64,000 bases of DNA from Eubacteriales bacterium (GTDB lineage: Bacteria; Bacillota; Clostridia; Oscillospirales; CAG-272). The notes beneath the pieces were generated by a model. That model made no database searches, had not been told where the DNA came from, and saw only the letters and a list, made by a program, of their open reading frames with translations. Within the stretch, counting starts at the first letter, position 1. Each line of letters opens with the position of its first letter. The stretch covers positions 2,738 to 66,737 of the forward strand of contig JAZQKI010000017.1 in NCBI GenBank assembly GCA_045542075.1, given 5' to 3'. Of the stretch, positions 31,407 through 59,955 are shown piece by piece. A program made the translations under genes and the position numbers.

Positions 31407-31412
31407 TAGATG

Positions 31413-31496
31413 ACCTACCCGACAGGATTTGAACTTTCACATAATTTTGCGGGGCAAAATTATGTATAACGTTTCTTCTTACCGTTCGGGTGGTTA
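31413..31496. repeat. tRNA-Arg 3'-half-derived inverted-repeat element (copy E1)
   Basis: The left arm gacctacccgacaggatttgaac is a degenerate copy of 31539-31562 (the reverse complement of the tRNA-Arg 3' half). The centre is a 12-bp hairpin acataattttgc-ggg-gcaaaattatgt. The right arm taccgttcgggtgg resembles the tRNA-Arg acceptor 3' strand. Confidence 0.65.
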
Positions 31497-31500
31497 AACG

Positions 31501-31533
31501 CAAAGCAGAGGGGCAGGCGCCCCTCTGCTTTGT
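31501..31533. terminator. Bidirectional intrinsic terminator (permease on + / tRNA-Arg on -)
   Basis: aaagcagagggg-caggcg-cccctctgcttt. Confidence 0.75.
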
Positions 31534-31536
31534 GTT

Positions 31537-31613
31537 TGGCCTACCCGAACGGATTCGAACCGTTGACCTTCAGAGTCGGAGTCTGACGCGCTATCCAGCT
31601 GTGCCACGGGTAG
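31537..31613 (-). tRNA. tRNA-Arg (anticodon CCG)
   Basis: Manual cloverleaf: acceptor CTACCCG/CGGGTAG; anticodon stem TCAGA/TCTGA with loop CTCCGAC; T-arm AACGG-TTCGAAT-CCGTT; encoded CCA. Confidence 0.9.
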
Positions 31614-31856: not shown

Positions 31857-31891
31857 AAAATTCGACAAGTTTCAACTTGTCGAATTTTTTT
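31857..31891 (+). terminator. Intrinsic terminator after tRNA-Gln(CTG)
   Basis: aaattcgacaagt-ttca-acttgtcgaattt followed by TTTTT. Confidence 0.8.
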
Positions 31892-31893
31892 AT

Positions 31894-32082
31894 CCAAGCC
31901 GCAGGCTTGGCATATCATCGCCGCACGAAGTGCTGCGTATATCATCAAGGGCGGCAAGCCGCCCTTGTATCTCATCACGCGCCAGCGTGCATTTTCCTGC
32001 GGCTTAATGATATACAACACTTCGTGTTGGTGATATACAAGGCTTACGCCTTGATGATATCCACGCCTTCGGCGTGATTTGG
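31894..32082 (+). ncRNA. Candidate structured RNA ('hairpin ladder'): seven unrelated hairpins joined by three nested complementary linker pairs
   Basis: See the first finding. There is no credible ORF. Linkers ATATCATC x3 (31911-31976) are complementary to GATGATAT-type linkers x3 (32006-32062) in nested order. The strand of any transcript is not established. Confidence 0.4.
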
Positions 32083-32167
32083 AGCGAGTGTCGCCCTCAA
32101 TTTCCCGCAAACGCCTTGCAATCTCCCCGATTTTATGCTATACTAACATCAGAAAGGCGGTGTTGAA

Positions 32168-40451: not shown

Positions 40452-40457
40452 AAAAAA

Positions 40458-40492
40458 TAAAGGAGATGCACCTGCATCTCCTTTATTTTTTT
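40458..40492 (+). terminator. Intrinsic terminator after tRNA-Glu
   Basis: taaaggagatgca-cc-tgcatctccttta followed by TTTTTTT. Confidence 0.8.
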
Positions 40493-40493
40493 G

Positions 40494-40810
40494 CTCGCCC
40501 TTCCGGGCGCGAGAAGGCGGACAACTCAAATTTGCTCGCAAATTTGAGTTGGGGGTTCAGATTCCCGGCTTTAGGCTTTCGATTACTACTCTTTTCTCGT
40601 AGAATCGGAACGATAACTCGACGCAGTCGAGTTGAAAGTTCTGATTCATACGCAAAGCATAGCTTTGCTGCCCGCTTTTTGCTTCGCAAAATAGCGCCAA
40701 AATTTTTGAGGGTTCGATGCCCTCAAAAATTTTCTCAGAAGACATCCTTGACCACCTTGATGGTGGTCTGTTCTTTTTTTGCGGACTCCGTCCGAGGAAT
40801 CGGACAACAA
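40494..40810 (+). other. Non-coding run of ~10 unrelated, mostly perfect hairpins, ending in a second terminator-like hairpin
   Basis: Examples: caactcaaatttgc-tc-gcaaatttgagttg (40522-40551), aactcgac-gca-gtcgagtt (40615-40633), gcaaagc-ata-gctttgc (40652-40668), aaaatttttgaggg-ttcgatg-ccctcaaaaatttt (40698-40732, T-arm-like apex), and gaccacc-ttgat-ggtggtc followed by T-rich sequence (40750-40780). Confidence 0.5.
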
Positions 40811-49038: not shown

Positions 49039-50160
49039 ATGTATTGTCCAAAGTGCGGCGCGGAGCTGAATGACGGCTCTGTTATATGCAACGTATGCGG
49101 CGAGCATTTCGCCATAGAGCAGCAAAAGGGTAACTTCATAGCGGCAAAAAATAAAACCCTTGCCATTATTTACGACCTTTTTCATTCCAAGCTGTTTCTT
49201 TTCCTTTCGATCATCACAACCATTCTCTGCGGAGTGGGCTTTATATCCATCTTCACAGGCGGAGGAGTCGAGGCGATACTTACGTTTGCGTTCTCTCTTC
49301 CCGCTACTATTGCCTGCTGGAAGACCTACTCTGCAAAGGCAATTCCCAGCACAAGGAATATAGCAAAGATCAGAGCACTTCTTAAAGCATGGCGCATATT
49401 ATCAAAGGTTCTTTATATAATACTTATCGTATGTTTTGTCATAATGCTTATCGCCTCGGTGGCGCTCGGTCTCGCTTGGAACAAAGCGGAGGCACAGCTG
49501 GACAACGGTGAGCTTTCGCAGGCTATTGCGGACGCTTTCCTCGAGGAAGGGCTTATTACATACGAGCAAGCAGAGGAGCTTGCGACGTTTGAAATAACAG
49601 GCTGGATGATTTCCATTCTCTTTATCGGAATCGCTGTTATTTGCGCTGTGTTCGTCGCTCTTTATATCGTTTACGGCATTATGCTTAAAAAGGCCGAAAG
49701 CTACGTTCTCGATGTAGAATATACCCTTATCTCGGGCAGCTACTCGTCTATGGGCTCTCCCGGCAAATTTATGCTTGTAATGGGTATAATATACGCGGTA
49801 TCCTCCACAGGTACGGTGTCCTACTTTAGTTTCAACCTCGGAGAGTTTGAGGCATCTTTCTCGTTGCCCAACTTCTTGCCCGTAGTAATCGGCACGTTCC
49901 TTATCTGCGCGGGAATACTCTTTAATAAGATTCACGCGGCTGAAATTGCCAACAATCAAGTCCTTGCTCGCGAGGAGTTTGAGCTTGCCCGCGTAGCGCA
50001 GCTTACAAACGACGCAATCGCCGCAAAGCAGGAGGCTGAGGCTGTTGTTGAGGAGGCTCCCGTGGTTGAGGAAGCTCCCGCAGTTGAGGAGGCTCCCGCA
50101 GTTGAGGAGGCTCCCGCGGTCGAGGAAGCTCCTGTGGTTGAGGAAACACCCAACGAATAA
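49039..50160 (+). CDS. Zinc-ribbon membrane protein with a C-terminal EEAP(A/V)V tandem repeat tail
   Basis: MYCPKCGAEL..CNVCG ribbon, ~6 TM segments, and a C-terminus (VEEAPA)x5. Confidence 0.75.
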   Translation: MYCPKCGAELNDGSVICNVCGEHFAIEQQKGNFIAAKNKTLAIIYDLFHSKLFLFLSIITTILCGVGFISIFTGGGVEAILTFAFSLPATIACWKTYSAKAIPSTRNIAKIRALLKAWRILSKVLYIILIVCFVIMLIASVALGLAWNKAEAQLDNGELSQAIADAFLEEGLITYEQAEELATFEITGWMISILFIGIAVICAVFVALYIVYGIMLKKAESYVLDVEYTLISGSYSSMGSPGKFMLVMGIIYAVSSTGTVSYFSFNLGEFEASFSLPNFLPVVIGTFLICAGILFNKIHAAEIANNQVLAREEFELARVAQLTNDAIAAKQEAEAVVEEAPVVEEAPAVEEAPAVEEAPAVEEAPVVEETPNE

Positions 50161-50169
50161 ATCATTAAC

Positions 50170-50202
50170 AAAAAACGCTTGTCATGCGACAAGCGTTTTT
50201 TT
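50170..50202. terminator. Bidirectional terminator between convergent genes
   Basis: aaaaacgcttgtc-atg-cgacaagcgttttt. Confidence 0.8.
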
Positions 50203-50213
50203 GTTTTTAAGAA

Positions 50214-52181
50214 TCAAATTTGTTCATTTGGCTTTACAATACCCATGCGGTATGCCTCAAGCAGAGCCTTGAGGTCGGATTTCATATCCATAAGCTCCTT
50301 GCCCTCGTCGGTATCTGAAACCATCATTCGTCTGTTCATCATCTCAAATACCACGTCGGTCGTGGCAAGAATGTCCTTGTTTTCCTTGATAGCCGCCGCC
50401 TTGCCCTCAAACGCGCCGTGAGACACGAGTCTGAGCCCGCGCGACGAGTAGATAAGCGTATATCCCGCAATGCCCGTCGTGGTGTGATACGCCTTGCAGA
50501 AGCCGCCGTCGATAAGTATATATCTGCCGTTTGCCTTTACGGGATTCTCTCCCGCGCCCGCCTTTACGGGAACGTGTCCGTTTATTACGTGTGAATTTAT
50601 CTCGTCAAGTCCGAACTCGTGAAGTATTCTGCATATAGCTCCGTAATTATCAATAAAAGAATAATACGGGTTCTTCTTTTCCGTCCAAGCGGTCTTATCC
50701 GAGATAAAGCATCTCTCAAAGGTGGTCATCTTCTCGCGCCCGAAGAGCGGACTGTGCTTGCCGCACCAGAGATAATACATAAAATCAAGCGCATTTGCGT
50801 CACCGTTATAGTAAGCAAGTCGCGCTATTCTGTCACAGGCATCCATATATTCCTTGCCCGATACAGAGCGTCCGTCGTAAAGCGTCACGGATTGGAAATC
50901 TCCCTCCGCCGTCATGGGAATACAGCCGTGGAAAAGTAAATTCTGATTATATATCTTGTAAAGACTTCCCTTTGCATACAGGAACTTGACGTGAGCCTGA
51001 AGCGCTGCGCTATGTCTGAACGCGCGGGTGAGCGACGCCATAAGGCCCTCCTCCTCGGGAGAAAGCGCGTATGGGTCATTTATGTCAACCGTCGGAAAGT
51101 CACAGTCATCAAGATAGTATTCAGCGCCGTCGATAGTGACCGTTTTTTTGTCGCGGTCTATCTTGTCAAGCAGGAGCCTGCCGTCCATCCCGTACTCGGG
51201 ATGACGCTTGATAAGCTGTCCCTCAAGCTTGAAAAGGATTATAGCTATCGCCTTGTGAGCCTTTGAAAGACTGCTCATGTTGTTTTTGATATAGTCCTTG
51301 TCCTCTGCAGAGCGAGGCATAAATCCCGTGCTGTCGCCATACGTCTCCTGCGCAAAGCCGATAAGGTCGCGAAGGCTTATTCCGTAAGAGTTTTCAACAA
51401 GCGAAAGCGTGTTGTACTGCACCGCAAGGTTAAGGACGCTTGCAATACACGCACGGCTTCCCGCCGCGGCACCCATCCAGACTATGTCGTGGTTGCCCCA
51501 CTGAACGTCTACGTTATGGTGAGCCATGAGCATATCAAGTATCTTGTCCGCGCGCTGTCCTCTGTCGTAAATGTCGCCGACCACGTGCAAGCGGTCAACC
51601 GCCATTCTCTTGATAAGCGAGCAGAGCGCCTCAACGAATGCGGGAGCCTGACCTATCTCGATTATGGTGGAGATAATGTTTCGGTAATATTCCTGCTTGT
51701 TGTGCTCCTCACCCGAGGTGTGAAGCAGCTCGTCGATTATGTTCTGATATTCAGACGGAAGCGCGTCACGAACCTTTGAACGGGTGTATTTTGATGCGAC
51801 TGAGCGCGCAAGGTCAACAAGTCTGTAAAGCGTGAGGTCATACCACTCGGGCGTGTCCTCTCCCTTTGCGTGAAGCTCCTCTATTTTCTCTACGGGGTAG
51901 TAGATGAGCGTGCATAGCTCACGTCTCTCGCTCTCGGACACAAAGCGGTAGAAAAGATTGTCAACCTTTTCTCTGATGACTCCCGAGCAGTTGTTAAGTA
52001 TATGCTTGAAAGCCTCCGCCTCACCGTGAAGGTCGCTCAAAAAATGCTCCGTTCCCTTGGGCAGATTAAGTATAGCGTTTAGATTGACGACAGCCGCCCC
52101 CGCCGTCTGTATCGAGGGATATTGCTTTGCCAAAAGAATCAGCATTTTTATTTGTTCGGGTGTGTACGCCGTTTTTTTCAT
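50214..52181 (-). CDS. fbp: Fructose-1,6-bisphosphatase, class 3
   Basis: 655 aa with a metallophosphoesterase pattern (FLSDLHGE, VVGDIYDRG, GNHD) and the long C-terminal domain characteristic of Firmicute class-3 FBPase. Confidence 0.9.
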   Translation of the reverse strand: MKKTAYTPEQIKMLILLAKQYPSIQTAGAAVVNLNAILNLPKGTEHFLSDLHGEAEAFKHILNNCSGVIREKVDNLFYRFVSESERRELCTLIYYPVEKIEELHAKGEDTPEWYDLTLYRLVDLARSVASKYTRSKVRDALPSEYQNIIDELLHTSGEEHNKQEYYRNIISTIIEIGQAPAFVEALCSLIKRMAVDRLHVVGDIYDRGQRADKILDMLMAHHNVDVQWGNHDIVWMGAAAGSRACIASVLNLAVQYNTLSLVENSYGISLRDLIGFAQETYGDSTGFMPRSAEDKDYIKNNMSSLSKAHKAIAIILFKLEGQLIKRHPEYGMDGRLLLDKIDRDKKTVTIDGAEYYLDDCDFPTVDINDPYALSPEEEGLMASLTRAFRHSAALQAHVKFLYAKGSLYKIYNQNLLFHGCIPMTAEGDFQSVTLYDGRSVSGKEYMDACDRIARLAYYNGDANALDFMYYLWCGKHSPLFGREKMTTFERCFISDKTAWTEKKNPYYSFIDNYGAICRILHEFGLDEINSHVINGHVPVKAGAGENPVKANGRYILIDGGFCKAYHTTTGIAGYTLIYSSRGLRLVSHGAFEGKAAAIKENKDILATTDVVFEMMNRRMMVSDTDEGKELMDMKSDLKALLEAYRMGIVKPNEQI

Positions 52182-52337
52182 ATTTCAAGCTCTCCCTTTT
52201 CATATTTGCGTCTCTATATTTATTTTAACTGATATTTAGCAAAAAGTAAAGAGATTTTCCGAAAATGACTTAAAAACCATTCGATATTTTTCGCAGACCG
52301 CAAACAAAAAAGAACTTTTTATTTTGCCCTTTTGCTC

Positions 52338-52367
52338 TTGACATTCTCGCCCTCGGTGTGATATAAT
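52338..52367 (+). promoter_or_regulatory. Promoter of tRNA-Gln(TTG) (TTGACA-18-TATAAT, TG-extended) with a 15-nt perfect palindrome across the -10
   Basis: TTGACAttctcgccctcggtgTGaTATAAT. The palindrome GTGATATaATATCAC lies at 52358-52372. Confidence 0.7.
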
Positions 52368-52383
52368 ATCACAGTACAAATAT

Positions 52384-52458
52384 TGGGGTGTCGCCAAGCG
52401 GTAAGGCACAGGACTTTGACTCCTGCATTCGTCAGTTCAAATCTGGCCACCCCAGCCA
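52384..52458 (+). tRNA. tRNA-Gln (anticodon TTG)
   Basis: TGGGGTG/CACCCCA acceptor (U1:A72); anticodon stem CAGGA/TCCTG with loop CTTTGAC; T-arm GTCAG-TTCAAAT-CTGGC; GCCA tail. Confidence 0.92.
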
Positions 52459-52493
52459 AACACAAAGGGGCGCAAATGCGCCCCTTTGTGTTT
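52459..52493 (+). terminator. Intrinsic terminator after tRNA-Gln(TTG)
   Basis: aaacacaaaggggcgc-aaa-tgcgcccctttgtgttt. Confidence 0.8.
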
Positions 52494-52560
52494 GACTGGG
52501 CTAGCCGATTTGAACTGACTGCCAAGACGCTTGCGGCTTGGTGAGGGTTCAAATCTGGCC
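52494..52560. repeat. tRNA-Gln 3'-half-derived palindromic element (copy E3)
   Basis: The left arm ctgggctagccgatttgaactgac approximates the reverse complement of tRNA-Gln 52431-52455. The centre is ccaagacgc-tt-gcggcttgg. The right arm contains gggttcaaatctggcc (14-nt exact match to the tRNA T-arm). An extra ggttcaaatctggcc copy lies at 52602-52616. Confidence 0.75.
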
Positions 52561-52665
52561 TTTTCACCCTACGTGTGGTCATCATTGGCTAATTGTGTGA
52601 TGGTTCAAATCTGGCCGAAGTTTTGATTACTTTGAAGCGAGGCGCGTAAATCCGGATTTTCTTGC

Positions 52666-52694
52666 TTGAAATATTTACAAAATTGTGGTATAAT
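52666..52694 (+). promoter_or_regulatory. Promoter (TTGAAA-17-TATAAT, TG-extended), copy 1 of a duplicated promoter block
   Basis: TTGAAAtatttacaaaattgTGgTATAAT. It differs from the 53392-53420 block at one base. Confidence 0.65.
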
Positions 52695-52750
52695 AGATAA
52701 ATGGATGGGGCATCCCCCCTCACTAACAACATGGCAAAGGAGGAAGCAAA

Positions 52751-52984
52751 ATGATATTATACATAGAATCAGTATACGGGGATGTGTTATTACACGGAAA
52801 AAGAATGGAAGAATCAGAATTGCGCAAAAAAGCCAATGAACTATTGAAGCTTGTCGGCGCCAAGGATTTTCTTTCCGCTTTTTGTATGCGTTATGATTAC
52901 GAAGAACTTCCTTTTGATCCGCATATGAAGATCGATTACGTTGTAGATTTAGATACGAGTTGGGTTTATAAGCCAATATATTAA
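52751..52984 (+). CDS. Hypothetical small cytoplasmic protein (77 aa)
   Basis: AAAGGAGG RBS 8 nt upstream. The overlapping minus-strand 123-aa ORF looks like junk. Confidence 0.6.
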   Translation: MILYIESVYGDVLLHGKRMEESELRKKANELLKLVGAKDFLSAFCMRYDYEELPFDPHMKIDYVVDLDTSWVYKPIY

Positions 52985-53068
52985 TGCATAGACTCGTTTA
53001 CAAACATTGCACAGCACCTGGAAAACAGCGGTCAAATGCAACTCCATCATCGCCAAGGGGTTAGTGTA

Positions 53069-53115
53069 CCCTCTGCAAAATAAGAGTGCATCCAAATCGG
53101 ACACACGTCACAACA
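53069..53115 (+). repeat. 47-nt conserved motif, copy 1
   Basis: ccctctgcaaaataagAgtgcatccaaatcggacacacgtcacaaca; 46/47 identical to 54288-54334. Confidence 0.8.
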
Positions 53116-53147
53116 GATAAGGCTCGCCGATTGGCGAGCCTTATCTG
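53114..53147 (+). other. Perfect 15-bp hairpin immediately after motif copy 1 (no U-run)
   Basis: cagataaggctcgcc-gatt-ggcgagccttatctg. Confidence 0.6.
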
Positions 53148-53149
53148 TT

Positions 53150-53216
53150 GGCTGGGCTAGCCGATTTGAACTGACTGCCAAGACGCTTGCGGCTTGGTGA
53201 GGGTTCAAATCTGACC
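53150..53216. repeat. tRNA-Gln 3'-half-derived palindromic element (copy E4)
   Basis: 53152-53216 matches 52496-52560 at 64 of 65 positions. Confidence 0.8.
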
Positions 53217-53391
53217 TAAGCTTCTGATTGCTTTGGATAACATTCGCACACCGTAGGGGTCGACCTCCCGGACGACCCGCAAAACCGTGGACAAACGAAC
53301 CGTCGGGGACGCCGGTCCCTACAAATGCAAAATTTATTTACAAAGCCGTAGCTGCATCGGAATTTTGGATAGATCCGAACTGACGATACGG

Positions 53392-53420
53392 TTGAAATGT
53401 TTACAAAATTGTGGTATAAT
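53392..53420 (+). promoter_or_regulatory. Promoter (TTGAAA-17-TATAAT, TG-extended), copy 2 of the duplicated promoter block
   Basis: TTGAAAtgtttacaaaattgTGgTATAAT. Confidence 0.65.
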
Positions 53421-53449
53421 ATAGATAACAATAATTTTAGGAGGTTCAT

Positions 53450-54169
53450 ATGAAACGTTTTTGCTTAATTATGATAACGCTTATGATGATTCTTGGCTTG
53501 TGTTCATGTAATTCGGAATCAAATAACAATGATAATTTTGATAGTACTGAAAAACCATATATGACTACTCATTGCTCGAAAGAAGATGTTGATGCTTTTT
53601 GCGATATCATTGGAGAACTTCAAGGAGAAGGTCTACTTTCGGGATTAGTCCTCGACAAGGAAAAATGTTTCAATGTTACACCACAGGAGGTTGCGCTGGA
53701 AACCAACTATAAAATTTTCAAATTCTCCGATTCGTGTGCTTCTTTTGTAATGATTGACAACGAGGTCTACACCCTGTGTGAATGGTTTGGCGGATACGGA
53801 TTTGTCAACGCTGTTCCTTGCGATTTTGACAATGACGGAAATAAAGATCTATTAGTTGCATCATCGTGGGGGTCCGGACTGCATCGTTCAATCATTTCAA
53901 TTTTTAATTCTGTAACCAAAGAGTCTACGGTTATTTATGACACTTCAACGACAGATAATCCTCAAATTAATTTATTTGTTGCGGCAGTTTCCCCCTCTTT
54001 TTCATCCAAAGACCCTTCCGACTCATCTATTTATTATCAAGTATATTCGGCTGAAATAAAATCAAATGATAATAACCTGGCTAATTTGTCTTATGTGGCA
54101 ACAGGCATTATAGGTTCGATTTCAACTGAAAATGGAGTGATTGCTTTTATTCCAACAGAGAAATCGTAA
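53450..54169 (+). CDS. Lipoprotein with an FG-GAP/VCBS-like segment, hypothetical
   Basis: MKRFCLIMITLMMILGLCSC lipobox; DFDNDGNKDLLVASSWGSG; GGAGG RBS. Confidence 0.7.
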   Translation: MKRFCLIMITLMMILGLCSCNSESNNNDNFDSTEKPYMTTHCSKEDVDAFCDIIGELQGEGLLSGLVLDKEKCFNVTPQEVALETNYKIFKFSDSCASFVMIDNEVYTLCEWFGGYGFVNAVPCDFDNDGNKDLLVASSWGSGLHRSIISIFNSVTKESTVIYDTSTTDNPQINLFVAAVSPSFSSKDPSDSSIYYQVYSAEIKSNDNNLANLSYVATGIIGSISTENGVIAFIPTEKS

Positions 54170-54287
54170 ATCGTTTCTGACTTTATACAGGCAGGTTGAT
54201 TACATAGGCTCAGTTGCAAGCATGGCGTTAAACGTCCGGTAGAACACGGAACCTTTTAACCCCCATAACCGCTCGTGGGTTATTGCC

Positions 54288-54334
54288 CCCTCTGCAAAAT
54301 AAGCGTGCATCCAAATCGGACACACGTCACAACA
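54288..54334 (+). repeat. 47-nt conserved motif, copy 2 (5' UTR of the 54349 gene)
   Basis: ccctctgcaaaataagCgtgcatccaaatcggacacacgtcacaaca, followed by caaAGGAGaatattATG. Confidence 0.8.
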
Positions 54335-54348
54335 CAAAGGAGAATATT

Positions 54349-54663
54349 ATGACTGTATCAGCACAAATTGTATGGTTCCCCGGCGCGCCTATTACGCTCG
54401 AAGTCATTCTTTTATATTTGTCGCTCTTGCTGATTGCTATAGGCGGATACGTCCTTTTGATGACATCTATGAAAAATGACCGTTACGACAGAAGGAGAAA
54501 ATTCCATCGGGCAAATCCGTGGGAAAGGTTGGAAAATCAAAATGCTAATAAGCAGCCTCCGGAAACTGATAAATTCAAGGTGCTGCGTATAATACTTATC
54601 GCCGTTGTTTCCATACTGACATTATTCGTGCTTGCTATATTGCTCGGTTGGATAAATATTTGA
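54349..54663 (+). CDS. Small membrane protein (104 aa), hypothetical
   Basis: I prefer the ATG at 54349 (AAGGAG RBS) over the track start 54283, which would translate the repeat motif. Two TM segments flank a basic loop. Confidence 0.6.
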   Translation: MTVSAQIVWFPGAPITLEVILLYLSLLLIAIGGYVLLMTSMKNDRYDRRRKFHRANPWERLENQNANKQPPETDKFKVLRIILIAVVSILTLFVLAILLGWINI

Positions 54664-54704
54664 TAAAAAACTCAAAAACCATCTTGTCTAAAAGGTACCC
54701 TCCC

Positions 54705-55883
54705 ATGGCTTCACTACTTTTAGTTTTAATTTACATCTGCTTTATAAGTCTCGGCCTGCCCGACTCGCTTTTGGGCTCGGCCTGGCCCGTATTACACGAG
54801 GAAATATGCGTTCCTATGTCCTACGCGGGCATTATATCCATGGTCATTTTCGTTGGAACTATACTCTCAAGTCTTTTCAGCGACAAGCTGCTCCGAAAAT
54901 TCGGCGCGGGCAGAGTGACCGCAGTCAGCGTTATGCTTACCGCCATAGGCCTTTTCGGCTTTTCAACAAGCACGCGCTTTTGGATGCTGATACTGTGGGC
55001 TATTCCCTACGGGCTCGGCGCGGGCGGTGTTGACGCAATACTAAATAACTACGTCGCGCTTCATTACAAGGCGCAGCATATGAGCTGGCTTCACTGTATG
55101 TGGGGAGTCGGCGCGTCAATAAGTCCTTACATTATGAGCTTTTCGCTCATCCGTCTTGACGGCTGGAGCTACGGCTATCTTATCGTGGCAGTAATTCAGG
55201 CGGTTTTGTGCGCATTTATATTTATCAGTCTCCCCGTGTGGAAAAAGGTCGAGCGCGCCGAGGTCGCCGACGAGGCTCAGGAGCAAGCTCCCTCGCTCTC
55301 GTTCAGAGAAATTTTCTCCATAAAGAACGCCATCCCCTGCTTTCTTATGTTCTTCGGATATTGCGCGCTGGAGCTGACGACGTCGCTTTGGGCAAGCAGC
55401 TATCTTGTGCAAAGATGGGAATTTTCCCCCGAGGTCGCCGCGGGCCTTGCAAGTATGTTTTATTTAGGTGTCACAGCGGGAAGATTTATCAACGGATTTC
55501 TCGCCATGAAGCTCGGCGACCATTTTCTGATAAGAACGGGACTTGGCATAATATCCGTGGGAATTATTCTGCTGTTTATTCCGTTCAGCTCTGTATTTGC
55601 TCTTGTCGGTTTTATACTGATAGGTTTCGGCTGCGCGCCCGTATATCCTTGTATAATTCATATGACACCCGACGTATTCGGCAGGGACAAATCCCAGGCG
55701 ATGATCGGCGTGCAGATGGCTTTTGCTTACGTGGGATTTCTTATAATGCCCCCGCTTTTTGGTATTATCGCGGAGCATATCTCAATCTCTCTTTTACCCG
55801 CATATCAGCTAATCCTCCTTGCGGTCATAATCATTATGCACGAGGTATTGATGCGCGGCGCAAAGAAAAACAATCAGAAATAA
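54705..55883 (+). CDS. MFS transporter
   Basis: 12 TM segments and an MFS-like loop (..KLLRKFGAGRV..). Start taken at the first ATG (the track start 54648 is TTG inside the upstream gene). Confidence 0.8.
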   Translation: MASLLLVLIYICFISLGLPDSLLGSAWPVLHEEICVPMSYAGIISMVIFVGTILSSLFSDKLLRKFGAGRVTAVSVMLTAIGLFGFSTSTRFWMLILWAIPYGLGAGGVDAILNNYVALHYKAQHMSWLHCMWGVGASISPYIMSFSLIRLDGWSYGYLIVAVIQAVLCAFIFISLPVWKKVERAEVADEAQEQAPSLSFREIFSIKNAIPCFLMFFGYCALELTTSLWASSYLVQRWEFSPEVAAGLASMFYLGVTAGRFINGFLAMKLGDHFLIRTGLGIISVGIILLFIPFSSVFALVGFILIGFGCAPVYPCIIHMTPDVFGRDKSQAMIGVQMAFAYVGFLIMPPLFGIIAEHISISLLPAYQLILLAVIIIMHEVLMRGAKKNNQK

Positions 55884-56045
55884 AAACCTTATCTCAAAAG
55901 GCGTCGTTGACGCCTTTTTTTGTTATTTATCACAGCGCAAATATTTCTTAAAATTTCTTAAAAAGCCTCCAAGGACATACCTCTCCCAACAAAATATGCT
56001 ATAATATGACAGTAAATGACAATTTTTATGTATTCTGGAGAGATT

Positions 56046-56816
56046 ATGAAAGAATTTTTAGGATTTGGCGGATATGAGCGCACACCTGAGGGCGCGTATT
56101 CCTGGCAGCACCTTTTGCTCGTGGGCATCGTGCTTGCGACAATGATAGGGCTTGCTGTCTGGCTTGGACTTGTAAACCGAAACAAAGACGAAAAAAGCAA
56201 AAACCGTGTGCTTGTCTGGACTGCAATACTCATAGATTCTCTTGAAATATTCAAAATAGTGGTTATGTGTATGCGCTCGGATGACCCGTCGACTGCCTGG
56301 CACGGACTTTTGCCCCTGTTTTTGTGCAGTATCCAGCTTATCACGATTCCCGTTGCGGCGTTCACCCGCGGAATCGTCAAGGACGCGGCGCTTGACTTTG
56401 TGTTTATATTCGGAATTCTCGGCGCGGTGCTTGGAACTATCGGTGCGGCGCAGAATTATAACGCCTACCCCGTCCTCTCGCTCGACAACGTGGTATCGGC
56501 GCTGACTCACTCCATCTCTGGCTTTGCCTCGCTCTACATCGCAATATCGGGAATGGCAAGCATGAAGAAAAGAAATATTCCCATTACGTATTCCATACTC
56601 GGCGTATTTTGTGTTGCGGCGTTTATCACGAACAAAATTCTTGATACCAACTATATGTTCCTTGAGAGCGACGACGGCACCCCCTACTCGCTTCTGACTG
56701 CGCTCGTCGGCGGTAATCACGTGCTTTACGCGATAGGCGTCATCCTGCTTTTCGTAATATACATAGCGCTGTTTTATCTTATATTCCATCTGTGTACGAG
56801 AAAAAGCAAAAAATAA
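56046..56816 (+). CDS. YwaF/TIGR02206 (TMEM164-like) integral membrane protein
   Basis: Start at the ATG 56046 (GGAGAG RBS). Contains WHGLLPLFLCSIQLITIP and ~7 TM segments. The family call is from memory of the LPLxLC signature. Confidence 0.6.
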   Translation: MKEFLGFGGYERTPEGAYSWQHLLLVGIVLATMIGLAVWLGLVNRNKDEKSKNRVLVWTAILIDSLEIFKIVVMCMRSDDPSTAWHGLLPLFLCSIQLITIPVAAFTRGIVKDAALDFVFIFGILGAVLGTIGAAQNYNAYPVLSLDNVVSALTHSISGFASLYIAISGMASMKKRNIPITYSILGVFCVAAFITNKILDTNYMFLESDDGTPYSLLTALVGGNHVLYAIGVILLFVIYIALFYLIFHLCTRKSKK

Positions 56817-57036
56817 ATACATGGCTTAATAACGGGCGCTCCATCAGTCGCAGGTTATTGAGCCATATTTTTTTCTATGCCGGCGGTCAAAAGCAAACTT
56901 TTTTATTGACATTATTTTTCTTATATGATAAAATGAAAACAGAAGGCATTATCTCCCTATCGCCTGAAGACTTTCCGAACAGTCTTATGATCTTTCGGAA
57001 AAGAAAGGACTTAACTTTTTTGTTAAGGGTGAAAAA

Positions 57037-59955
57037 ATGAAAAAATACTTAGCTTGGATCTTAATTTGCTCGATGCTTCTCGGCGTACTGGCAGCCTGCA
57101 ATCAGGAAAAGCCTGACGGCAAGCCCACTCAGACTCCTACAGAGACACCTACGCAGACTCCTACGGAAGCACCTACTCAGGCTCCTACGGAAGCGCCTAC
57201 TCAGGCTCTTACAGAGGCACCCACTCAGGCTCCTACAGAAGCTCCCACGCAAGCTCCCACAGAAGCTCCCACAGAAGCTCCCACGGAAGCGCCTACAGAG
57301 CCGCCCTATGAGCTTCCCGATAATTCTATAGATCTTACTATTTCAAGCTCTGTTTATTCAAATCTTATAGGCGCGCACAGTTTGTCCGTTACCTTTTCGG
57401 GTGGTGTCGCAAGTCTGAACTTTACAGATTCGGGAGCAGGTTACGTTAATGACCCATACGTTACGCTGAAGCTTCCGTCTTCCCAGATAAACTGTCAGCA
57501 ATACCCATACGTTGCTATTTTGGTGAAAACAAGCGAGCCTATTCTTGAGGGCGAGCTGCGATTCAAAACCACAACTACTGGAAGCGCCTTCCCGTGTCAG
57601 CCCTTCTCTCACGAATATGATGACGGCTGGCAGCTTATAGTTTGTAATCTGACAGATCTCAGCACAGAGAAATTTTACCATCCCACCGTGCCCTTCTCGG
57701 GTTATTATACAGAGTTAAGACTCGACCTGTACTATCCCAACACGCCCGGTTCGGGAATGATTCTTCCGGACACGGAATACTACATAAAGGCATACGCATT
57801 TTTCAAGACGGAGGCTGAAGCGGCAGAATTGATAAAGTTCAAGCCCGACAGCTCATCCGATCAGGAGACCCCTAACGTGAAATACGAAGATTTCTGGCTT
57901 GGCGAGCAATTCGAAAAGCCTTCAAACGACAAAAGAATGAATTGGGTCCATTATGGATTCAAACAAAGCACAGCCCCAGTTGACATGTTCCTGAAGGAAG
58001 GCTATGGCGGCATTGTTTCCAACGTAAACTTCAATCAGAATTACCTTCAGAGTCCAAATGAATTTGCTATTCTGAAGGATGTATACGGTTACGCCGCAAG
58101 CAAGGATATGACGCTCTGGATATACGATGAATATCAGTGGCCCAGCGGCAAGGCATTCGGCCTTGTTCTTGACCGTCAGCCCGGACGTGAGTGGGAATCC
58201 ACGGGAATCGAGCATATCGTCATAAAGGGCTCGAGTGCGGTAGCATCCTACAAGCTCGGCGACAAATACGGCACCGACCTTGAGATCGGCATTATGCATG
58301 CGATCCTTACCGACAGCAGAGGCTCGACAACACTTAGAATAAACAGTGATTGCAGCATCTCCTACGGCACGTCGGGTGACTGGACGCTTGATATATACAT
58401 TCTCAGATATACCTATAATGAAACCGAAAACAGAAAGGATTTCACCACTCTGCGCGACGTTGACCTGCTCAACCCCGACGCAGTTAAATGCTTTATCGAG
58501 CTGACTCATCAGCAGTACAAGGATAATTTCGGCGAATCCTTCAAGAATATTACCGCTTTCTTTACCGACGAGCCTCAGCTCGGCAACAGAGGCATGGCGG
58601 ATTACGTCGTCTGGACAAACGGATTTGCGGAAAGATTTTACGAGACGTACGGATACGAGATAAATATCCCCAGCCTGTTCTCGGGAACAACGGATTACGA
58701 CAATATGGTAAGACTTAATTACTATCAGCTTGTCGCCACTATGTTCAAGGAATCATATATCGATCAGATAACCGAATGGTGCGAGGCAAACGGCGTCGCG
58801 TCCTCGGGACACCTTCTGTTCGAGGAGGATATGAACGACCACATCGAGACATACGGCGGTAACTTTATGCAGGTGGTCGGCGGCATGTCCATTCCGGGTG
58901 CAGACGTACTTTGGGTAGACCCCTATAACCTTCTCAGACAGAACTTTATTGGAAATTACATGGGACTTCGCTACGTCTCCTCCGCCGCTAAAAACGCTGG
59001 CAAGGATGAGGTAATGATAGAATTCAATCCCAACGCTGTAAACGCTCTCGACATGTATGAGGACGACTACTCCGTCACCATAGGAGGTCTTTCCATAACC
59101 AGACTGCTCGGCACGAACGTGTATAACGTCATAAATCCGTCAAAGGACTACTCCATATCCGAGCTGAACGGTCTGAACACATACATCGGCCGTCTTAACA
59201 CAATTCTCGACGAGACTACCGAATGCGGTCAGCTTGCGGTATTCTATCCAATCGCTACCGTTCAGGCATATCACGATGCGGACAGCGACCATTCCTCGGA
59301 AACAGGCAGCGGCAGTACAAACTCAAGTGTAATCAACACCAATTACGAAAAGCTTTGCCTTACGCTGTTGCAAAATCAGCTTCTCTATACGATCATCGAT
59401 GACGAGAGCATTCGTCAGGCAGAGATCACCTCAGACGGAAAAATGGTCATAGGTCTTGGCAGCTACTCAACCATAGTTATTCCCTTTACCGAGTACATTT
59501 CGGTTGAGGCTCTCCAAAAGCTCGCTGATTTTGAGAAAGCTGGCGGCACGGTGTTCTTCTACAAGTCAAAAATAGCTCACGGTCTTGAGCTTGACCAGGA
59601 GGCAGAGATCGCGGAGATCTTCTCTGCCATGGAAAAGGAACCCGTAAATTCAGTGAACGCTCTTACAAGGAAGGTAAAGGATGCCGTATCCACAAGCATC
59701 AGCGCAACTGTGATTACAGGCACGAAAACAAATCTTCTTATGGGAGATTTCACATCCGAGACTCATGACGTATCCTTCCTCGTCAACACAGCCTCCTCGG
59801 ATATGACGGTGCAGTGGAACTACACCGACGGCTACACAGGTAGCGCAACAATCTACTACCCCGGCTCGGGTAATATCGAGACTATTGAGCTTTCTGAAGT
59901 CGGAGAGGTAATTATCCCCGCATATGAAGGAGTACTGATAGTCCGCGAAAAATAA
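57037..59955 (+). CDS. Secreted lipoprotein with a PT(E/Q)AP linker; putative glycoside-hydrolase-like enzyme (family not assigned)
   Basis: Lipobox LGVLAAC and a (PTQ/EAPTE)n linker at aa 30-92. Blocks WIYDEYQWPSG, DLLNPDAVKCFIELTHQQY and AFFTDEPQLGN recall uncharacterised or rhamnosidase-like GH proteins. That resemblance is only from memory. Confidence 0.6.
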   Translation: MKKYLAWILICSMLLGVLAACNQEKPDGKPTQTPTETPTQTPTEAPTQAPTEAPTQALTEAPTQAPTEAPTQAPTEAPTEAPTEAPTEPPYELPDNSIDLTISSSVYSNLIGAHSLSVTFSGGVASLNFTDSGAGYVNDPYVTLKLPSSQINCQQYPYVAILVKTSEPILEGELRFKTTTTGSAFPCQPFSHEYDDGWQLIVCNLTDLSTEKFYHPTVPFSGYYTELRLDLYYPNTPGSGMILPDTEYYIKAYAFFKTEAEAAELIKFKPDSSSDQETPNVKYEDFWLGEQFEKPSNDKRMNWVHYGFKQSTAPVDMFLKEGYGGIVSNVNFNQNYLQSPNEFAILKDVYGYAASKDMTLWIYDEYQWPSGKAFGLVLDRQPGREWESTGIEHIVIKGSSAVASYKLGDKYGTDLEIGIMHAILTDSRGSTTLRINSDCSISYGTSGDWTLDIYILRYTYNETENRKDFTTLRDVDLLNPDAVKCFIELTHQQYKDNFGESFKNITAFFTDEPQLGNRGMADYVVWTNGFAERFYETYGYEINIPSLFSGTTDYDNMVRLNYYQLVATMFKESYIDQITEWCEANGVASSGHLLFEEDMNDHIETYGGNFMQVVGGMSIPGADVLWVDPYNLLRQNFIGNYMGLRYVSSAAKNAGKDEVMIEFNPNAVNALDMYEDDYSVTIGGLSITRLLGTNVYNVINPSKDYSISELNGLNTYIGRLNTILDETTECGQLAVFYPIATVQAYHDADSDHSSETGSGSTNSSVINTNYEKLCLTLLQNQLLYTIIDDESIRQAEITSDGKMVIGLGSYSTIVIPFTEYISVEALQKLADFEKAGGTVFFYKSKIAHGLELDQEAEIAEIFSAMEKEPVNSVNALTRKVKDAVSTSISATVITGTKTNLLMGDFTSETHDVSFLVNTASSDMTVQWNYTDGYTGSATIYYPGSGNIETIELSEVGEVIIPAYEGVLIVREK

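Follow-up and report, generated by a model that had tools for sequence, protein, structure and literature searches.

A tRNA-Gln-anchored array of putatively self-promoted gene cassettes in uncultured gut Clostridia

Introduction

The textbook cases of bacterial gene banks whose content is shuffled from strain to strain are integrons and rAID-1 clusters; they occur in Gram-negative bacteria or in Bacteroidales and are defined by a linked recombinase. The cassettes of integrons are promoterless and expressed from a common Pc, and the intI gene is adjacent. The attC site is an imperfect palindrome, which is bounded by R'' (RYYYAAC) and R' (GTTRRRY). Moreover, Saunders and Snyder are said to have described in 2002 the minimal mobile elements of Neisseria, alternative cassettes in one chromosomal slot that replace one another via homologous recombination within conserved flanks. 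The rAID-1 loci are recombinase-associated acquired interbacterial defence clusters of the Bacteroidales (Ross et al. 2019, bioRxiv 10.1101/471110; 10.1101/2025.05.03.651265). Heterogeneous polyimmunity loci are thought to be polycistronic and often lie beside XerC/D (Zhang et al. 2012, PMC3482391).

Here, we describe a locus from an uncultured gut Clostridia lineage (Eubacteriales or Oscillospiraceae-type MAGs) that would be an equivalent strain-variable cassette array, with a tRNA gene as the anchor, insulated transcription units and no visible recombinase. It lies in a stretch of 64,000 nt that was analysed as a whole and is called the window hereafter. The original prediction had divided the locus into two tandem modules with the same order of parts, a tRNA-derived palindrome, a short similar stretch, a promoter block, an unrelated gene and a 47-nt motif. 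The reading that we regard as probable is that the window contains a two-cassette, arguably three-gene, array anchored on tRNA-Gln(UUG), in which the cassettes are self-expressed and recombination in the shared frame swaps the cargo.

Architecture of the array

All features described here are located on the plus strand. The array starts at a tRNA-Gln(UUG) gene (52384-52458), which was detected by ARAGORN and by the Rfam tRNA model (60.6 bits). It is preceded by a predicted promoter with 12 of 12 consensus positions in the promoter scan (52338-52367; the anchor part spans 52338-52458) and followed by the putative terminator hairpin A (52459-52493), identified from its inverted repeats. The window array is anchored on a genuine tRNA-Gln gene, which corrects the original prediction. 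Terminator hairpin A, the 3' half of the tRNA and the left arm of the adjacent element E1 form a near-perfect palindrome of about 90 nt, for which a DNA fold of -43.6 kcal/mol (z -12) and also an RNA fold were computed.

As predicted, the tRNA-derived palindrome is present in both modules. Repeat analysis, shuffles and DNA folding delimit E1 at 52492-52561; within it, the tRNA 3' end is copied in inverted orientation (52494-52519), followed by an inner hairpin (52520-52545) and by a T-arm copy in direct orientation (52546-52561). E2 (53148-53217), found by repeat analysis, is identical to E1 at 68 of 70 positions, with a 60-nt core that is the same in both copies (no match expected from shuffles), and the two copies are direct repeats on either side of module 1. 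The left arm of E is the reverse complement of 3' sequence of the neighbouring tRNA-Gln(UUG) gene, exactly over 13 nt and imperfectly over a longer stretch, and 14 nt of the T-arm, GTTCAAATCTGGCC, recur at the right end as an exact direct copy. This 14-mer occurs four times in 52435-53216, where 0.04 occurrences are expected. As DNA, E folds to a hairpin of -16 kcal/mol (z -4.7). A further T-arm copy (52603-52616) ends a unit of 55-56 nt (52562-52616), which emerged from the analysis of repeat families and has tandem copies in the related loci L002 and L071. T-arm copies cluster close to the tRNA and before each module, and the distal array end yielded none.

Leader 1 and promoter block 1 occupy 52617-52694, with the block at 52666-52694 (TTGAAA, a 17-nt spacer and TGgTATAAT), and leader 2 and promoter block 2 occupy 53218-53420, with the block at 53392-53420. 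The two blocks differ at one position, as had been noted before, and no such repeat is expected by chance. Both match the sigma-70 consensus at 11 of 12 positions in the promoter scan and have a TG extended -10 region, suggesting promoter activity. The spacer of the 29-nt block includes an ACAAnnTTGT dyad. It is near-invariant across hosts, and its conservation beyond what a promoter needs hints at a role in protein binding or recombination. Two further features of leader 2 are a REP-like palindrome at about 53254-53322 and, at 53366-53386, an inverted box that resembles the T-arm. The idea that the leader box is a copy of the local tRNA was rejected, because the match to the own tRNA is no better than that to foreign ones (8.49 versus 8.59). 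The short similar stretch after E proved to be the weakest item of the original prediction, as the modules differ there by an indel and resemble each other only loosely.

The two cargo genes are mutually unrelated. Cargo 1, ORF77 (52751-52984; GC3 0.35), encodes a small alpha/beta protein, and cargo 2, ORF239 (53450-54169; GC3 0.31), a predicted beta-rich lipoprotein that resembles part of a beta-propeller. The GC3 of the cargos (0.31-0.35) contrasts with values of 0.54-0.60 in the neighbouring genes. Elsewhere, ORF77 belongs to a cassette with two genes, in which it follows a gene for a PF05635 four-helix-bundle protein; the 5'UTR of ORF77 in the window retains a relic of the 3' end of this gene. 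The predicted structure of ORF77 (pLDDT 89) had no PDB neighbour in a fold search, and that of ORF239 (pLDDT 79) gave only weak partial beta-propeller matches (TM about 0.28, E at least 5e-3). An exact look-up of the ORF239 sequence returned no record. Neither PADLOC nor Pfam nor the PDB fold search provided a functional match for either protein, and a sub-threshold FG-GAP match of ORF239 is the sole Pfam match for the two, in line with the earlier description of cargos without recognisable enzyme motifs, one of them FG-GAP-like. Downstream of cargo 2 lies ORF104 (54349-54663; GC3 0.44), which encodes a small membrane protein with two TM segments. ORF104 lacks its own promoter and is probably transcribed together with cargo 2; both L236 and L238 have this gene, and L001 and L002 lack it.

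Tail 1 (52984-53118), together with the putative terminator hairpin B (53111-53150), forms the 3' part of module 1 (52984-53150). Tail 2 (54200-54334) runs from TTACATAGG via tail hairpin A to the 47-nt motif at its end. A terminator is absent here and present in module 1 only, and tail 2 continues directly into the RBS of ORF104. The 47-nt motif lies where it had been placed (53069-53115 and 54288-54334; one mismatch, none expected), but this repeat widens to 72 nt with 86% identity (53044-53115 and 54263-54334) and the conserved tail really comprises about 130-170 nt. Tail hairpin A is paired in 91% of the cells, as compared to 40-58% with the partner slid, and shows covariation (65 double-change cells versus 27.9 in shuffles, 0/500). 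Besides this hairpin, the tail holds tandem direct repeats of the form TGCATCTAAATC.G.CACAC. The tail was also considered as a decayed copy of tRNA-Gln and this was rejected, since the alignment of the family consensus is no better than shuffles; only the window's own tails, with the downstream terminator included, align highly to tRNA-Gln. An Rfam scan of the window returned tRNAs and chance hairpin matches only, and Gut-1 RNA (RF01706) gave nothing at the gathering threshold of 50 bits. The hairpin arrays between the cassettes of L080 scored 46.4, 36.1 and 33.8 bits with the same model, below this threshold.

Differences between related loci

A near-identical strain, L236, was found via ORF104. 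It is 99.3% identical to the window over 50152-52561, from fbp through the tRNA gene to E, and 96% identical over the right flank (54200-59497). L236 is devoid of module 1, with a gap relative to the window of 656 nt, exactly one period from E to E. Since the single E of L236 is joined to terminator A, module 1 represents a 656-nt insertion or deletion difference that is bounded by E. In the slot of module 2, ORF239 is replaced in L236 by a PF01555 DNA methyltransferase and a 385-aa gene. Other cargos fill this slot in more distant relatives: L238 has a CPCC protein, and L001 and L002 have a single module with a 282-aa gene. L004 carries ORF77 with two other genes, and here terminator B lies immediately 3' of the tRNA. 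The proposed shuffling is thus supported, as both cargo and module number differ among these relatives and the locus alignment revealed variation instead of invariance.

Compared with L236, the swapped cargo has its right break point at tail 2. Moreover, positions 53384-54245 of the window are 97.8% identical at the nucleotide level to positions 6935-7795 of L131, which are part of an unrelated array; around this segment, the leader, the tail end and the neighbours all differ. The left break points vary with the comparison (about 53325 versus 53384), and homologous exchange therefore fits better than a fixed crossover site. The sequence of leader 1 and promoter block 1 is 95.7% identical in L001 and 92.9% identical in L002, and the neighbouring MFS gene reaches 81-87%.

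The exact 58-nt core of E had no match among the species-representative genomes of genome_contigs, and E in its exact window form is lineage-specific. In the relatives, the outer arms of E are kept and the inner hairpin is different yet self-complementary. E-like elements were also found behind tRNA-Arg and tRNA-Glu genes, where the T-arm and acceptor copy matches the respective tRNA. Tandem E units without cargo occur in L071, and in the parallel array of L112 the unit of tRNA, terminator, E, leader and promoter is present twice, around a cargo. E is missing from most arrays of the family. The element described for each module is therefore a feature of both modules in the window but not of the family frame: E stands outside the universal cassette frame and is a tRNA-derived hairpin element that is confined to the window lineage and also occurs behind other tRNAs.

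A cassette family in gut Clostridia

Considerably more than 100 species-level MAGs of gut Clostridia, all uncultured, contain the cassette frame. In genome_contigs, the promoter block is present in 53 stretches and the tail motif in 86, all of them from uncultured Clostridia-type MAGs, and a promoter-block scan of metagenomes added only 17 contigs, most of them short. The ORF downstream of the promoter block differs from case to case, and the leader upstream is conserved. The arrays contain up to six cassettes in 8 kb in the order tRNA, leader, promoter, cargo and tail, and the universal frame consists of leader, promoter, RBS, cargo, tail and terminator. The observation that conserved non-coding pieces enclose differing cargo therefore extends beyond the window, as the frame surrounds dozens of unrelated genes elsewhere. 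A co-oriented tRNA-Gln(ttg) gene lies upstream of the first cassette in 36 of the 44 informative loci (median distance 299 nt). The tRNA-Gln genes of the array hosts differ at many positions and comprise 26 distinct sequences. The host Clostridia reach high abundance in gut samples from ruminants and horses and in some from humans. It was also observed that a PF05635/Avd-like four-helix-bundle gene is often the first gene after the tRNA. Taken together, the arrays constitute a widespread family of putatively self-promoted gene cassettes that is apparently undescribed.

The 90 complete cargos have a median length of 192 aa and represent 48 unrelated families; their GC content is 35%, as compared to 44% for the loci holding them. 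The Pfam types comprise SMI1_KNR4 (a weak match below the cutoff, E = 4e-4), Ank, DUF2691, DUF4304, Gmx_para_CXXCG, DMP19, RDD, N6_N4_Mtase and Cys_rich_CPCC; some cargos, such as GH43 and rhamnose mutarotase, are plainly metabolic, and XRE-type regulators are frequent in the arrays. In the 33 cargo families that were scanned, no Pfam 'Imm' family was matched and a minority match families of immunity type. The immunity label applies to this minority, since most cargos are without any Pfam match and some are metabolic. The guess that the cargos are of immunity type thus finds partial support in the cassette family and none in the two window genes, which gave no functional match.

Recombination and alternative explanations

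Two crude six-frame regex scans of the window and 138 loci (about 1.3 Mb) yielded no credible tyrosine or serine recombinase motif and returned spurious antisense ORFs only. Clustering of 158 loci (1.0 Mb) gave no recurrent recombinase family, the precomputed Pfam annotation of L131-L143 and L236-L238 contains no integrase, and integrase remnants were not seen near the arrays. The statement that the window encodes no recombinase holds as far as the crude motif scan and the precomputed Pfam annotation reach, and a divergent gene may escape such a method; since the relatives are without exception MAGs or short contigs, a recombinase gene located farther away would have gone unnoticed. With regard to possible vehicles, the promoter block and the tail motif had no matches in viral_contigs, and the 601-nt frame had none in the PLSDB plasmids or the INPHARED phages.

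We propose that each cassette forms its own transcription unit with a leader, a near-consensus sigma-70 promoter, a strong RBS, one or sometimes two low-GC cargo genes, a tail and usually an intrinsic terminator. As separate transcription units, the cassettes would allow every cargo to be expressed at any array position. The conserved frame may serve as portable homology arms, recombination in which would exchange a cargo, either alone or together with its promoter, after horizontal transfer. In the window lineage, whole modules could also be gained or lost via recombination between the flanking 70-nt E hairpins. The break points suggest that this recombination is homologous and not site-specific. 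The array would then be a strain-variable bank of constitutively expressed accessory genes with a partly immunity-like or defence-like content, to judge from cargos such as SUKH, ankyrin and DMP19 proteins, a DNA methyltransferase pair and many small membrane proteins and lipoproteins; an immunity or defence role of the cargos is likewise conjectural.

However, homologous recombination alone leaves unexplained why 48 unrelated genes lie within a few tens of nt of the same promoter and tail in the first place, which argues for an unseen capture mechanism. It is possible, and we suggest this tentatively, that the locus is an integron-like but differently built platform of Gram-positive gut anaerobes for capture and expression, which is anchored in the 3' flank of tRNA-Gln(UUG), carries cassettes that each come with or acquire a promoter, RBS, structured tail and terminator of their own, and uses the tRNA-derived hairpins and T-arm copies as insertion sites for an unlinked or unrecognised recombinase. 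The PF05635/Avd-like four-helix-bundle gene and the recurrent XRE-family proteins are candidates for accessory factors. An integron-like site-specific system in the full sense, in which a recombinase encoded elsewhere or on a transient element moves circular cassettes, appears unlikely, albeit worth serious consideration. In such a system, the 3' flank of tRNA-Gln would take the role of attI, and the candidate sites would be the T-arm copies and E hairpins, the tail with hairpin A and its repeats, or the promoter block. This would account for the tight cargo boundaries (a few tens of nt from start and stop), the T-arm copy and similar junction before each cassette of the window lineage, the cargo-less E units of L071, the length of module 1 of exactly one E period, and the promoter spacer that stays near-invariant despite 26 distinct tRNA-Gln sequences. 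Moreover, the E-like elements at tRNA-Arg and tRNA-Glu match their own tRNA as hybrid att sites would, and the tail hairpin with its tandem direct repeats resembles arm-type binding sites. By contrast, the searches described above gave neither a tyrosine or serine recombinase motif in the window or 138 loci nor a recurrent recombinase family in 158 loci, a given cargo travels with neither leader nor tail, the left break points vary, most arrays lack E, and the GTT...AAC hairpin is the reverse of attC.

The exchange of cargo by recombination in the shared frame was also weighed against readings that dispense with it or assign another role to the cargos. The shared pieces could be leftover att sites and ends of tandemly accreted tRNA-integrating islands, i.e. 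integrase-less, CIME-like relics without function as a system. We regard this as very improbable in spite of the directly repeated tRNA 3'-end fragments, the low cargo GC, the position in the 3' flank of a tRNA gene and the E-like elements behind other tRNAs, because decay would not maintain such a frame: about 300 nt with intact promoter, RBS and hairpin have been retained around no fewer than 48 unrelated genes across over 100 species-level genomes, are better conserved than neighbouring coding genes (95.7% versus 81-87%) and show compensatory changes; remnants of an integrase were not seen near the arrays either. It is hardly credible that a promoter-gene unit was once, long ago, duplicated in tandem at this locus and that the two genes then diverged, although the same order of parts in adjacent units might point to this. 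The cargos are unrelated, the frame is common to dozens of other genes, and the 97.8% match of the module 2 cargo in the unrelated array of L131 and the lack of module 1 in the 99.3%-identical strain L236 refute it; the L236 difference, the widely shared frame and the L131 match indicate cassette exchange and not local gene duplication. That the arrays are anti-phage defence hotspots, and not banks of interbacterial-immunity or accessory genes, seems improbable. The methyltransferase and the 385-aa gene in the module 2 slot of L236 are likely a restriction-modification pair, a methyltransferase in L131 matches PADLOC mad2, and XRE-type regulators are frequent, but PADLOC recognised neither the window cargos nor most of the cargos tested, the majority of cargos are lone small proteins, membrane proteins or lipoproteins, and several belong to families reported from polyimmunity loci (ankyrin, SUKH; PMC3482391).

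Comparison with known systems

If real, the arrays would serve as a marker of strain-level variation in these Clostridia MAGs and provide a list of no fewer than 48 families of small accessory proteins, kept switched on by selection. The compact set of conserved promoter, RBS and 3' hairpin might be useful for expression in poorly tractable anaerobes. Furthermore, hairpin arrays similar to Rfam 'Gut-1' gain a genomic context, and a puzzling connection of PF05635 (Avd-like) genes with the 3' flanks of tRNAs becomes apparent.

The arrays resemble the rAID-1 clusters in their co-oriented short genes of about 100-300 codons with low GC, the repetitive conserved intergenic sequences, the strain-variable content, the gut habitat and some cargo families of immunity type (SUKH, ankyrin). 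At least two co-oriented short low-GC genes with conserved intergenic motifs, by which rAID-1 is recognised, are present here; a 5' tyrosine recombinase similar to XerD (>44% identity to BF9343_RS08045) was not encountered in the motif scans near the arrays. The cargo of rAID-1 neutralises interbacterial toxins, whereas here the family names alone (SMI1_KNR4, Ank, DMP19, DUF2691 and DUF4304) hint at such a role. In contrast to the Bacteroidales clusters, the cassettes reside in Gram-positive-type Clostridia, are anchored on a tRNA-Gln gene and have a near-consensus promoter per gene and usually their own terminator, and their intergenic frame has no detected similarity to the Rfam, plasmid or phage collections. 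The polyimmunity loci share with the arrays the unrelated small genes in tandem, the strain differences, the occurrence in Firmicutes and the ankyrin and SUKH members. However, the cassettes appear as separate transcription units in a conserved non-coding frame, and most of their cargos lack a recognised immunity domain.

Like integrons and CALINs, the arrays are ordered series of single-gene cassettes with tight boundaries and a structured repeat after each gene; the number and content of the cassettes vary between strains, and cassettes are common to several genomes. Unlike integrons, they were devoid of IntI in the motif scans (window and 138 loci), the clustering (158 loci) and the Pfam annotation of the neighbourhoods. 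Each cassette has its own predicted 11/12-consensus extended -10 promoter instead of Pc, and a tRNA gene is the anchor instead of attI. The polarity of the tail hairpin, GTTAAAAG...CTTTTAAC or GTTGCGC...GTGCAAC within a far longer conserved tail, is GTT...AAC, whereas attC reads R''(..AAC)...R'(GTT..). The recombinase that defines rAID-1 and the defining features of integrons were not found here. Similarities to tRNA-linked islands and CIMEs are the position in the tRNA 3' flank, the direct repeats from the tRNA 3' end and the tandem accretion, but an integrase beside the tRNA gene and 3'-end repeats at both ends, which characterise tRNA-integrated islands, were not found, and the units are single-gene cassettes of 0.6-2 kb with a common expression frame rather than islands that have ends of their own. 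Finally, the arrays and the minimal mobile elements of Neisseria have in common that alternative cassettes occupy one slot and are exchanged through conserved flanks. The Neisseria elements are flanked by housekeeping genes in one slot, whereas the cassettes described here are arranged in tandem between dedicated non-coding promoter and tail modules in many species.

Organisation of the tandem modules

The layout of two tandem modules at 52494-54348, as given in the original prediction, was recovered in full, and every pattern is present exactly twice in the 64-kb window. Repeat searches revealed two 70-nt copies of the hairpin element E (52492-52561 and 53148-53217; 68 of 70 positions identical), which share an identical 60-nt core, and two 30-nt copies of the promoter block (52666-52695 and 53392-53421) with one mismatch. 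The 47-nt motif that had been noticed at the end of both modules is a real repeat with a single difference, but it is only the final part of a longer tail repeat of 72 nt with 86% identity (53044-53115 and 54263-54334). The E, promoter-block and tail patterns did not occur in dinucleotide-preserving shuffles. According to a promoter scan, both promoter blocks match TTGACA-17-TATAAT at 11 of 12 positions and contain a TG extended -10 element. The better hairpin of the 47-nt motif (hairpin at 53086-53106 and 54304-54326) forms on the minus strand, where three G-T pairs correspond to C-A mismatches on the plus strand. With a T-rich run behind it, it was called as a minus-strand terminator, which may insulate the cargo, i.e. 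the gene inside the module, from antisense transcription.

The modules are directly preceded by a tRNA-Gln(UUG) gene with its own perfect promoter (52384-52458), which was absent from the original prediction. E has a left arm that corresponds in reverse complement to the T-arm and acceptor end of this tRNA, and at its right end GTTCAAATCTGGCC is copied exactly and in direct orientation. This 14-mer occurs four times within 52435-53216 (0.04 expected). The hairpin of E has a folding z-score of -4.7, and the 3' half of the tRNA, terminator hairpin A and the left arm of E together form a palindrome of about 90 nt (z-score -12). Judged from these matches, E is built from the adjacent tRNA-Gln(UUG) gene. 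In the related locus L071, three to four tandem E units are present without any cargo.

Two further tRNA genes of the window are followed by E-like elements. Downstream of tRNA-Arg(ccg) (31537-31613), an element on the minus strand (31410-31536) combines a terminator and an inverted tRNA-Arg 3' end with two more parts. One is an inner hairpin (acataattttgccccgcaaaattatgt) belonging to the family found in E of the loci L001 and L004, the other a direct T-arm/acceptor copy that matches tRNA-Arg and not tRNA-Gln. The whole resembles either a hybrid att site or a miniature tRNA-targeting element. The element downstream of tRNA-Glu(ctc) (40452-40590) comprises a terminator, hairpins and a tRNA-Glu T-arm copy (gggggttcagattcccggc, 40551-40569), followed by aggctttcgattact, the junction sequence that is also located 3' of both E copies. 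Moreover, a short GC-rich hairpin array with the constant spacer ATATCATC follows tRNA-Gln(ctg) (31890-32085). Similar arrays lie between the cassettes of locus L080 (5451-5530 and 6403-6580), the spacer outside the window being TGAAAT/ACATCATT. The L080 arrays scored 46.4 bits against the Gut-1 RNA of Rfam (RF01706), just under the threshold of 50 bits, and would give this orphan metagenomic motif a genomic context.

A conserved frame in uncultured Clostridia

Species-representative genomes were scanned with a 29-nt promoter block in which two positions were left free. The scan yielded 53 stretches, in all of which a conserved leader ending with ...GTCTGTAGACAGATTCGAACCGGCGAAACGG precedes the block. 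The RBS behind the block often reads GAAAGGCGGTG, and the ORF that comes next differs from case to case. In the reference case L080, three cassettes lie behind tRNA-Gln(UUG), and all of them comprise leader, promoter, RBS, cargo, conserved tail (about 150 nt) and terminator. The tail starts 5-40 nt past the stop codon with TACATAGG..TCGTTGCAAGCATGGCGTT, continues with a hairpin in at least two mutually compensating versions and CCCATCATCGCCAAGGGGTTAGTGTACCCTCTGCAAAAT, and finishes with TGCATCTAAATC.G.CACACACG in one or two copies, this last part being the 47-nt motif. Among 48 tails, 91% of the cells in the proposed helices are paired, versus 40-58% with the partner slid, and double changes exceed the shuffled expectation more than twofold (0/500). 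In compact arrays (L125 and parts of L131), the tail is reduced to its first portion, as far as the hairpin. A co-oriented tRNA-Gln(UUG) gene lies 5' of the first block, at a median distance of 299 nt, in 36 of 82 promoter-block loci; 38 have too little flank to tell and eight are arranged otherwise.

A search with the tail motif added 86 stretches. The hosts are all uncultured Clostridia, Eubacteriales or Oscillospiraceae MAGs, including Candidatus Flemingiibacterium. The gut samples behind them were mostly of ruminants, deer and horses, with some of human origin. The surroundings of the arrays vary between genomes, and ABC sugar permeases border that of L080. The hosts have 26 distinct tRNA-Gln sequences, yet the 29-nt block is nearly invariant. 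Leader and promoter of the window are 95.7% and 92.9% identical to those of L001 and L002, respectively, the adjacent MFS gene 81-87%. The frame had no match in Rfam, IMG/VR, phage or plasmid collections, and no published description was found in the literature.

In the window, leader 2 contains a REP-like palindrome (53254-53322; ccgtaggggtcgacc...ggtccctac) with relatives in the leaders of L086, L090, L101, L111, L126 and L127, which also carry other inserts (e.g. gccttcctccgggagg...ggagcc). Small palindromic insertions seem to accumulate preferentially in the leaders.

Cargo and array-associated genes

The 90 complete cargo ORFs belong to 48 families, among them 23 singletons. The cargos have a median length of 192 aa and a GC content of 35% (44% for the host loci); 25 contain a hydrophobic stretch of at least 18 residues and seven a lipobox-like N-terminus. 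In the window, the GC3 values of the cargo genes ORF77 (0.35) and ORF239 (0.31) are lower than those of the flanking fbp (0.60) and MFS (0.57) genes. Pfam matches were few among 33 scanned families and comprise ankyrin, DUF2691, DUF4304, Gmx_para_CXXCG, DMP19, RDD, DUF2812 and DUF6304, with SMI1/KNR4 below the cutoff; a rhamnose mutarotase and an enzyme of family GH43 were found as well. Both ankyrin and SUKH proteins have been counted among the immunity proteins of polymorphic toxin systems and assigned to 'heterogeneous polyimmunity loci' (PMC3482391). An immunity or defence role of the cargos would be based on a minority of the families.

ORF239 of module 2 has more than 285 unnamed homologues and is predicted to be a beta-rich, partly propeller-like lipoprotein, its model having no convincing structural neighbour. 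ORF77 of module 1 has only seven homologue clusters, and its model (pLDDT 89) has no neighbour in the PDB. PADLOC gave no match for the window cargos. In L139-L143, a two-gene cassette directly after tRNA-Gln contains a PF05635 four-helix-bundle gene first and ORF77 behind it. Since the 5' UTR of ORF77 in the window has kept the end of the PF05635 gene (relic at about 52715-52750), this gene was deleted here and the standard promoter block fused to ORF77.

No other gene recurs near the arrays as often as the PF05635 gene (23S rRNA-intervening-sequence/Avd-like; 22 of 158 loci, e.g. L083, L120, L139, L140, L163, L167, L168, L205, L207 and L212, also L010 and L109). In loci with a visible tRNA, the gene follows tRNA-Gln(UUG) at a distance of 200-360 nt, and it also occurs after tRNA-Arg(acg) and tRNA-Trp, so that the family is linked with stable-RNA genes. 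Furthermore, arrays at 38 loci (e.g. L131 5316-6377 and 7968-9011, L137 2073-3116) include genes for XRE-type HTH proteins whose C-terminal parts are TPR-like. These proteins belong to three families, and their genes are under a promoter other than the standard block. The small dyad ACAAnnTTGT in the spacer of the promoter block could serve as an operator.

Exchange of modules and cargos

Relatives, all of them MAGs or metagenome contigs and many of them short, were retrieved via the neighbouring fbp gene, and L236 via ORF104, a small membrane protein gene 3' of module 2. The fbp-linked relatives share the order fbp, tRNA-Gln and MFS gene and differ in the content between. For instance, L001 and L002, whose fbp is 95% identical, contain a single module in which leader and promoter block are the same and the cargo is a 282-aa gene; ORF104 is missing from both. 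L004 has an ORF77 homologue followed by two other genes.

L236, a near-identical strain, is collinear with the window (99.3% identity over 50152-52561 and 96.2-96.5% over 54200-59497). It has a single E joined straight to terminator A and shares leader 2 up to about 53325, followed by a variant promoter block. ORF239 is replaced by a PF01555 DNA methyltransferase gene and a 385-aa gene, and the tail resumes at the equivalent of 54200. Therefore, the window differs from L236 by an extra unit of 656 nt, i.e. module 1 or exactly one E-to-E period, and by a swapped cargo in module 2, and the locus is not invariant between relatives in module number and cargo. With the Cys-rich CPCC protein of L238, this orthologous slot is occupied by four different cargos (ORF239, the L236 gene pair, CPCC and the 282-aa gene of L001/L002). 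In L112, a terminator-E-leader-promoter unit is duplicated on either side of a cargo. Both genes flanking the locus also contain short tandem peptide repeats, namely a C-terminal (EEAPAV)n in a 373-aa membrane protein (49039-50160) and (PTQAPTEA)n linkers at the start of a 972-aa lipoprotein (57037-59955), the L236 alignment being broken within the latter repeat.

Cargo is also shared with unrelated surroundings. The segment 53384-54245, which spans the promoter block and ORF239 and reaches into the beginning of the tail, has 97.8% identity with positions 6935-7795 of L131 and with seven metagenome contigs. In L131, the leader, the remaining tail and all neighbours differ, and its 14.7 kb contain no other match to the window. 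The identity drops from about 98% to about 75% right after TACATAGGCT.

Mechanism of exchange

Judged by their sequence, the cassettes all have a promoter close to the consensus, a strong RBS and a 3' hairpin, in most cases with a terminator, so that the cargos should be transcribed whatever their position. Module 2 has no terminator, and there is probably read-through into ORF104 and the MFS gene.

Homologous recombination within the conserved frame would be the simplest explanation of the exchange, because the left break points vary (about 53325 versus 53384), no leader or tail variant is tied to a given cargo, and module 1 is bounded by the 70-nt repeats with their identical core. Site-specific recombination, which we consider rather unlikely, would better explain the very tight cargo boundaries, the conservation of the promoter spacer past promoter needs, the T-arm copies 5' of each module in the lineage of the window, and the E-like elements behind tRNA-Arg and tRNA-Glu, whose matched T-arm/acceptor copies resemble hybrid att sites. 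Moreover, homologous exchange cannot account for the first entry of 48 unrelated genes into the frame. However, crude motif scans revealed no recombinase near the arrays, in agreement with the previous statement that none is encoded in the window, and neither did ORF clustering of 158 loci (1.0 Mb) or the precomputed Pfam annotation of the better-annotated loci.

Comparison with known systems

The arrays do not correspond to integrons since the crude scans detected no intI near them, no attC was recognised and their cassettes are not promoterless, and the cargo content fits the label of a polyimmunity locus only in part. The closest functional analogue is rAID-1, the recombinase-associated interbacterial defence clusters of Bacteroidales (bioRxiv 10.1101/471110; 10.1101/2025.05.03.651265), which likewise vary between strains and consist of co-oriented short genes with low GC content and with conserved intergenic motifs 'reminiscent of integrons'. 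However, rAID-1 is defined by a XerD-like recombinase, none of which was detected near the arrays described here, and the host clades are different. Strain-variable cassette arrays are thus of a kind already known, and it is a real possibility that those described here have a new capture mechanism.
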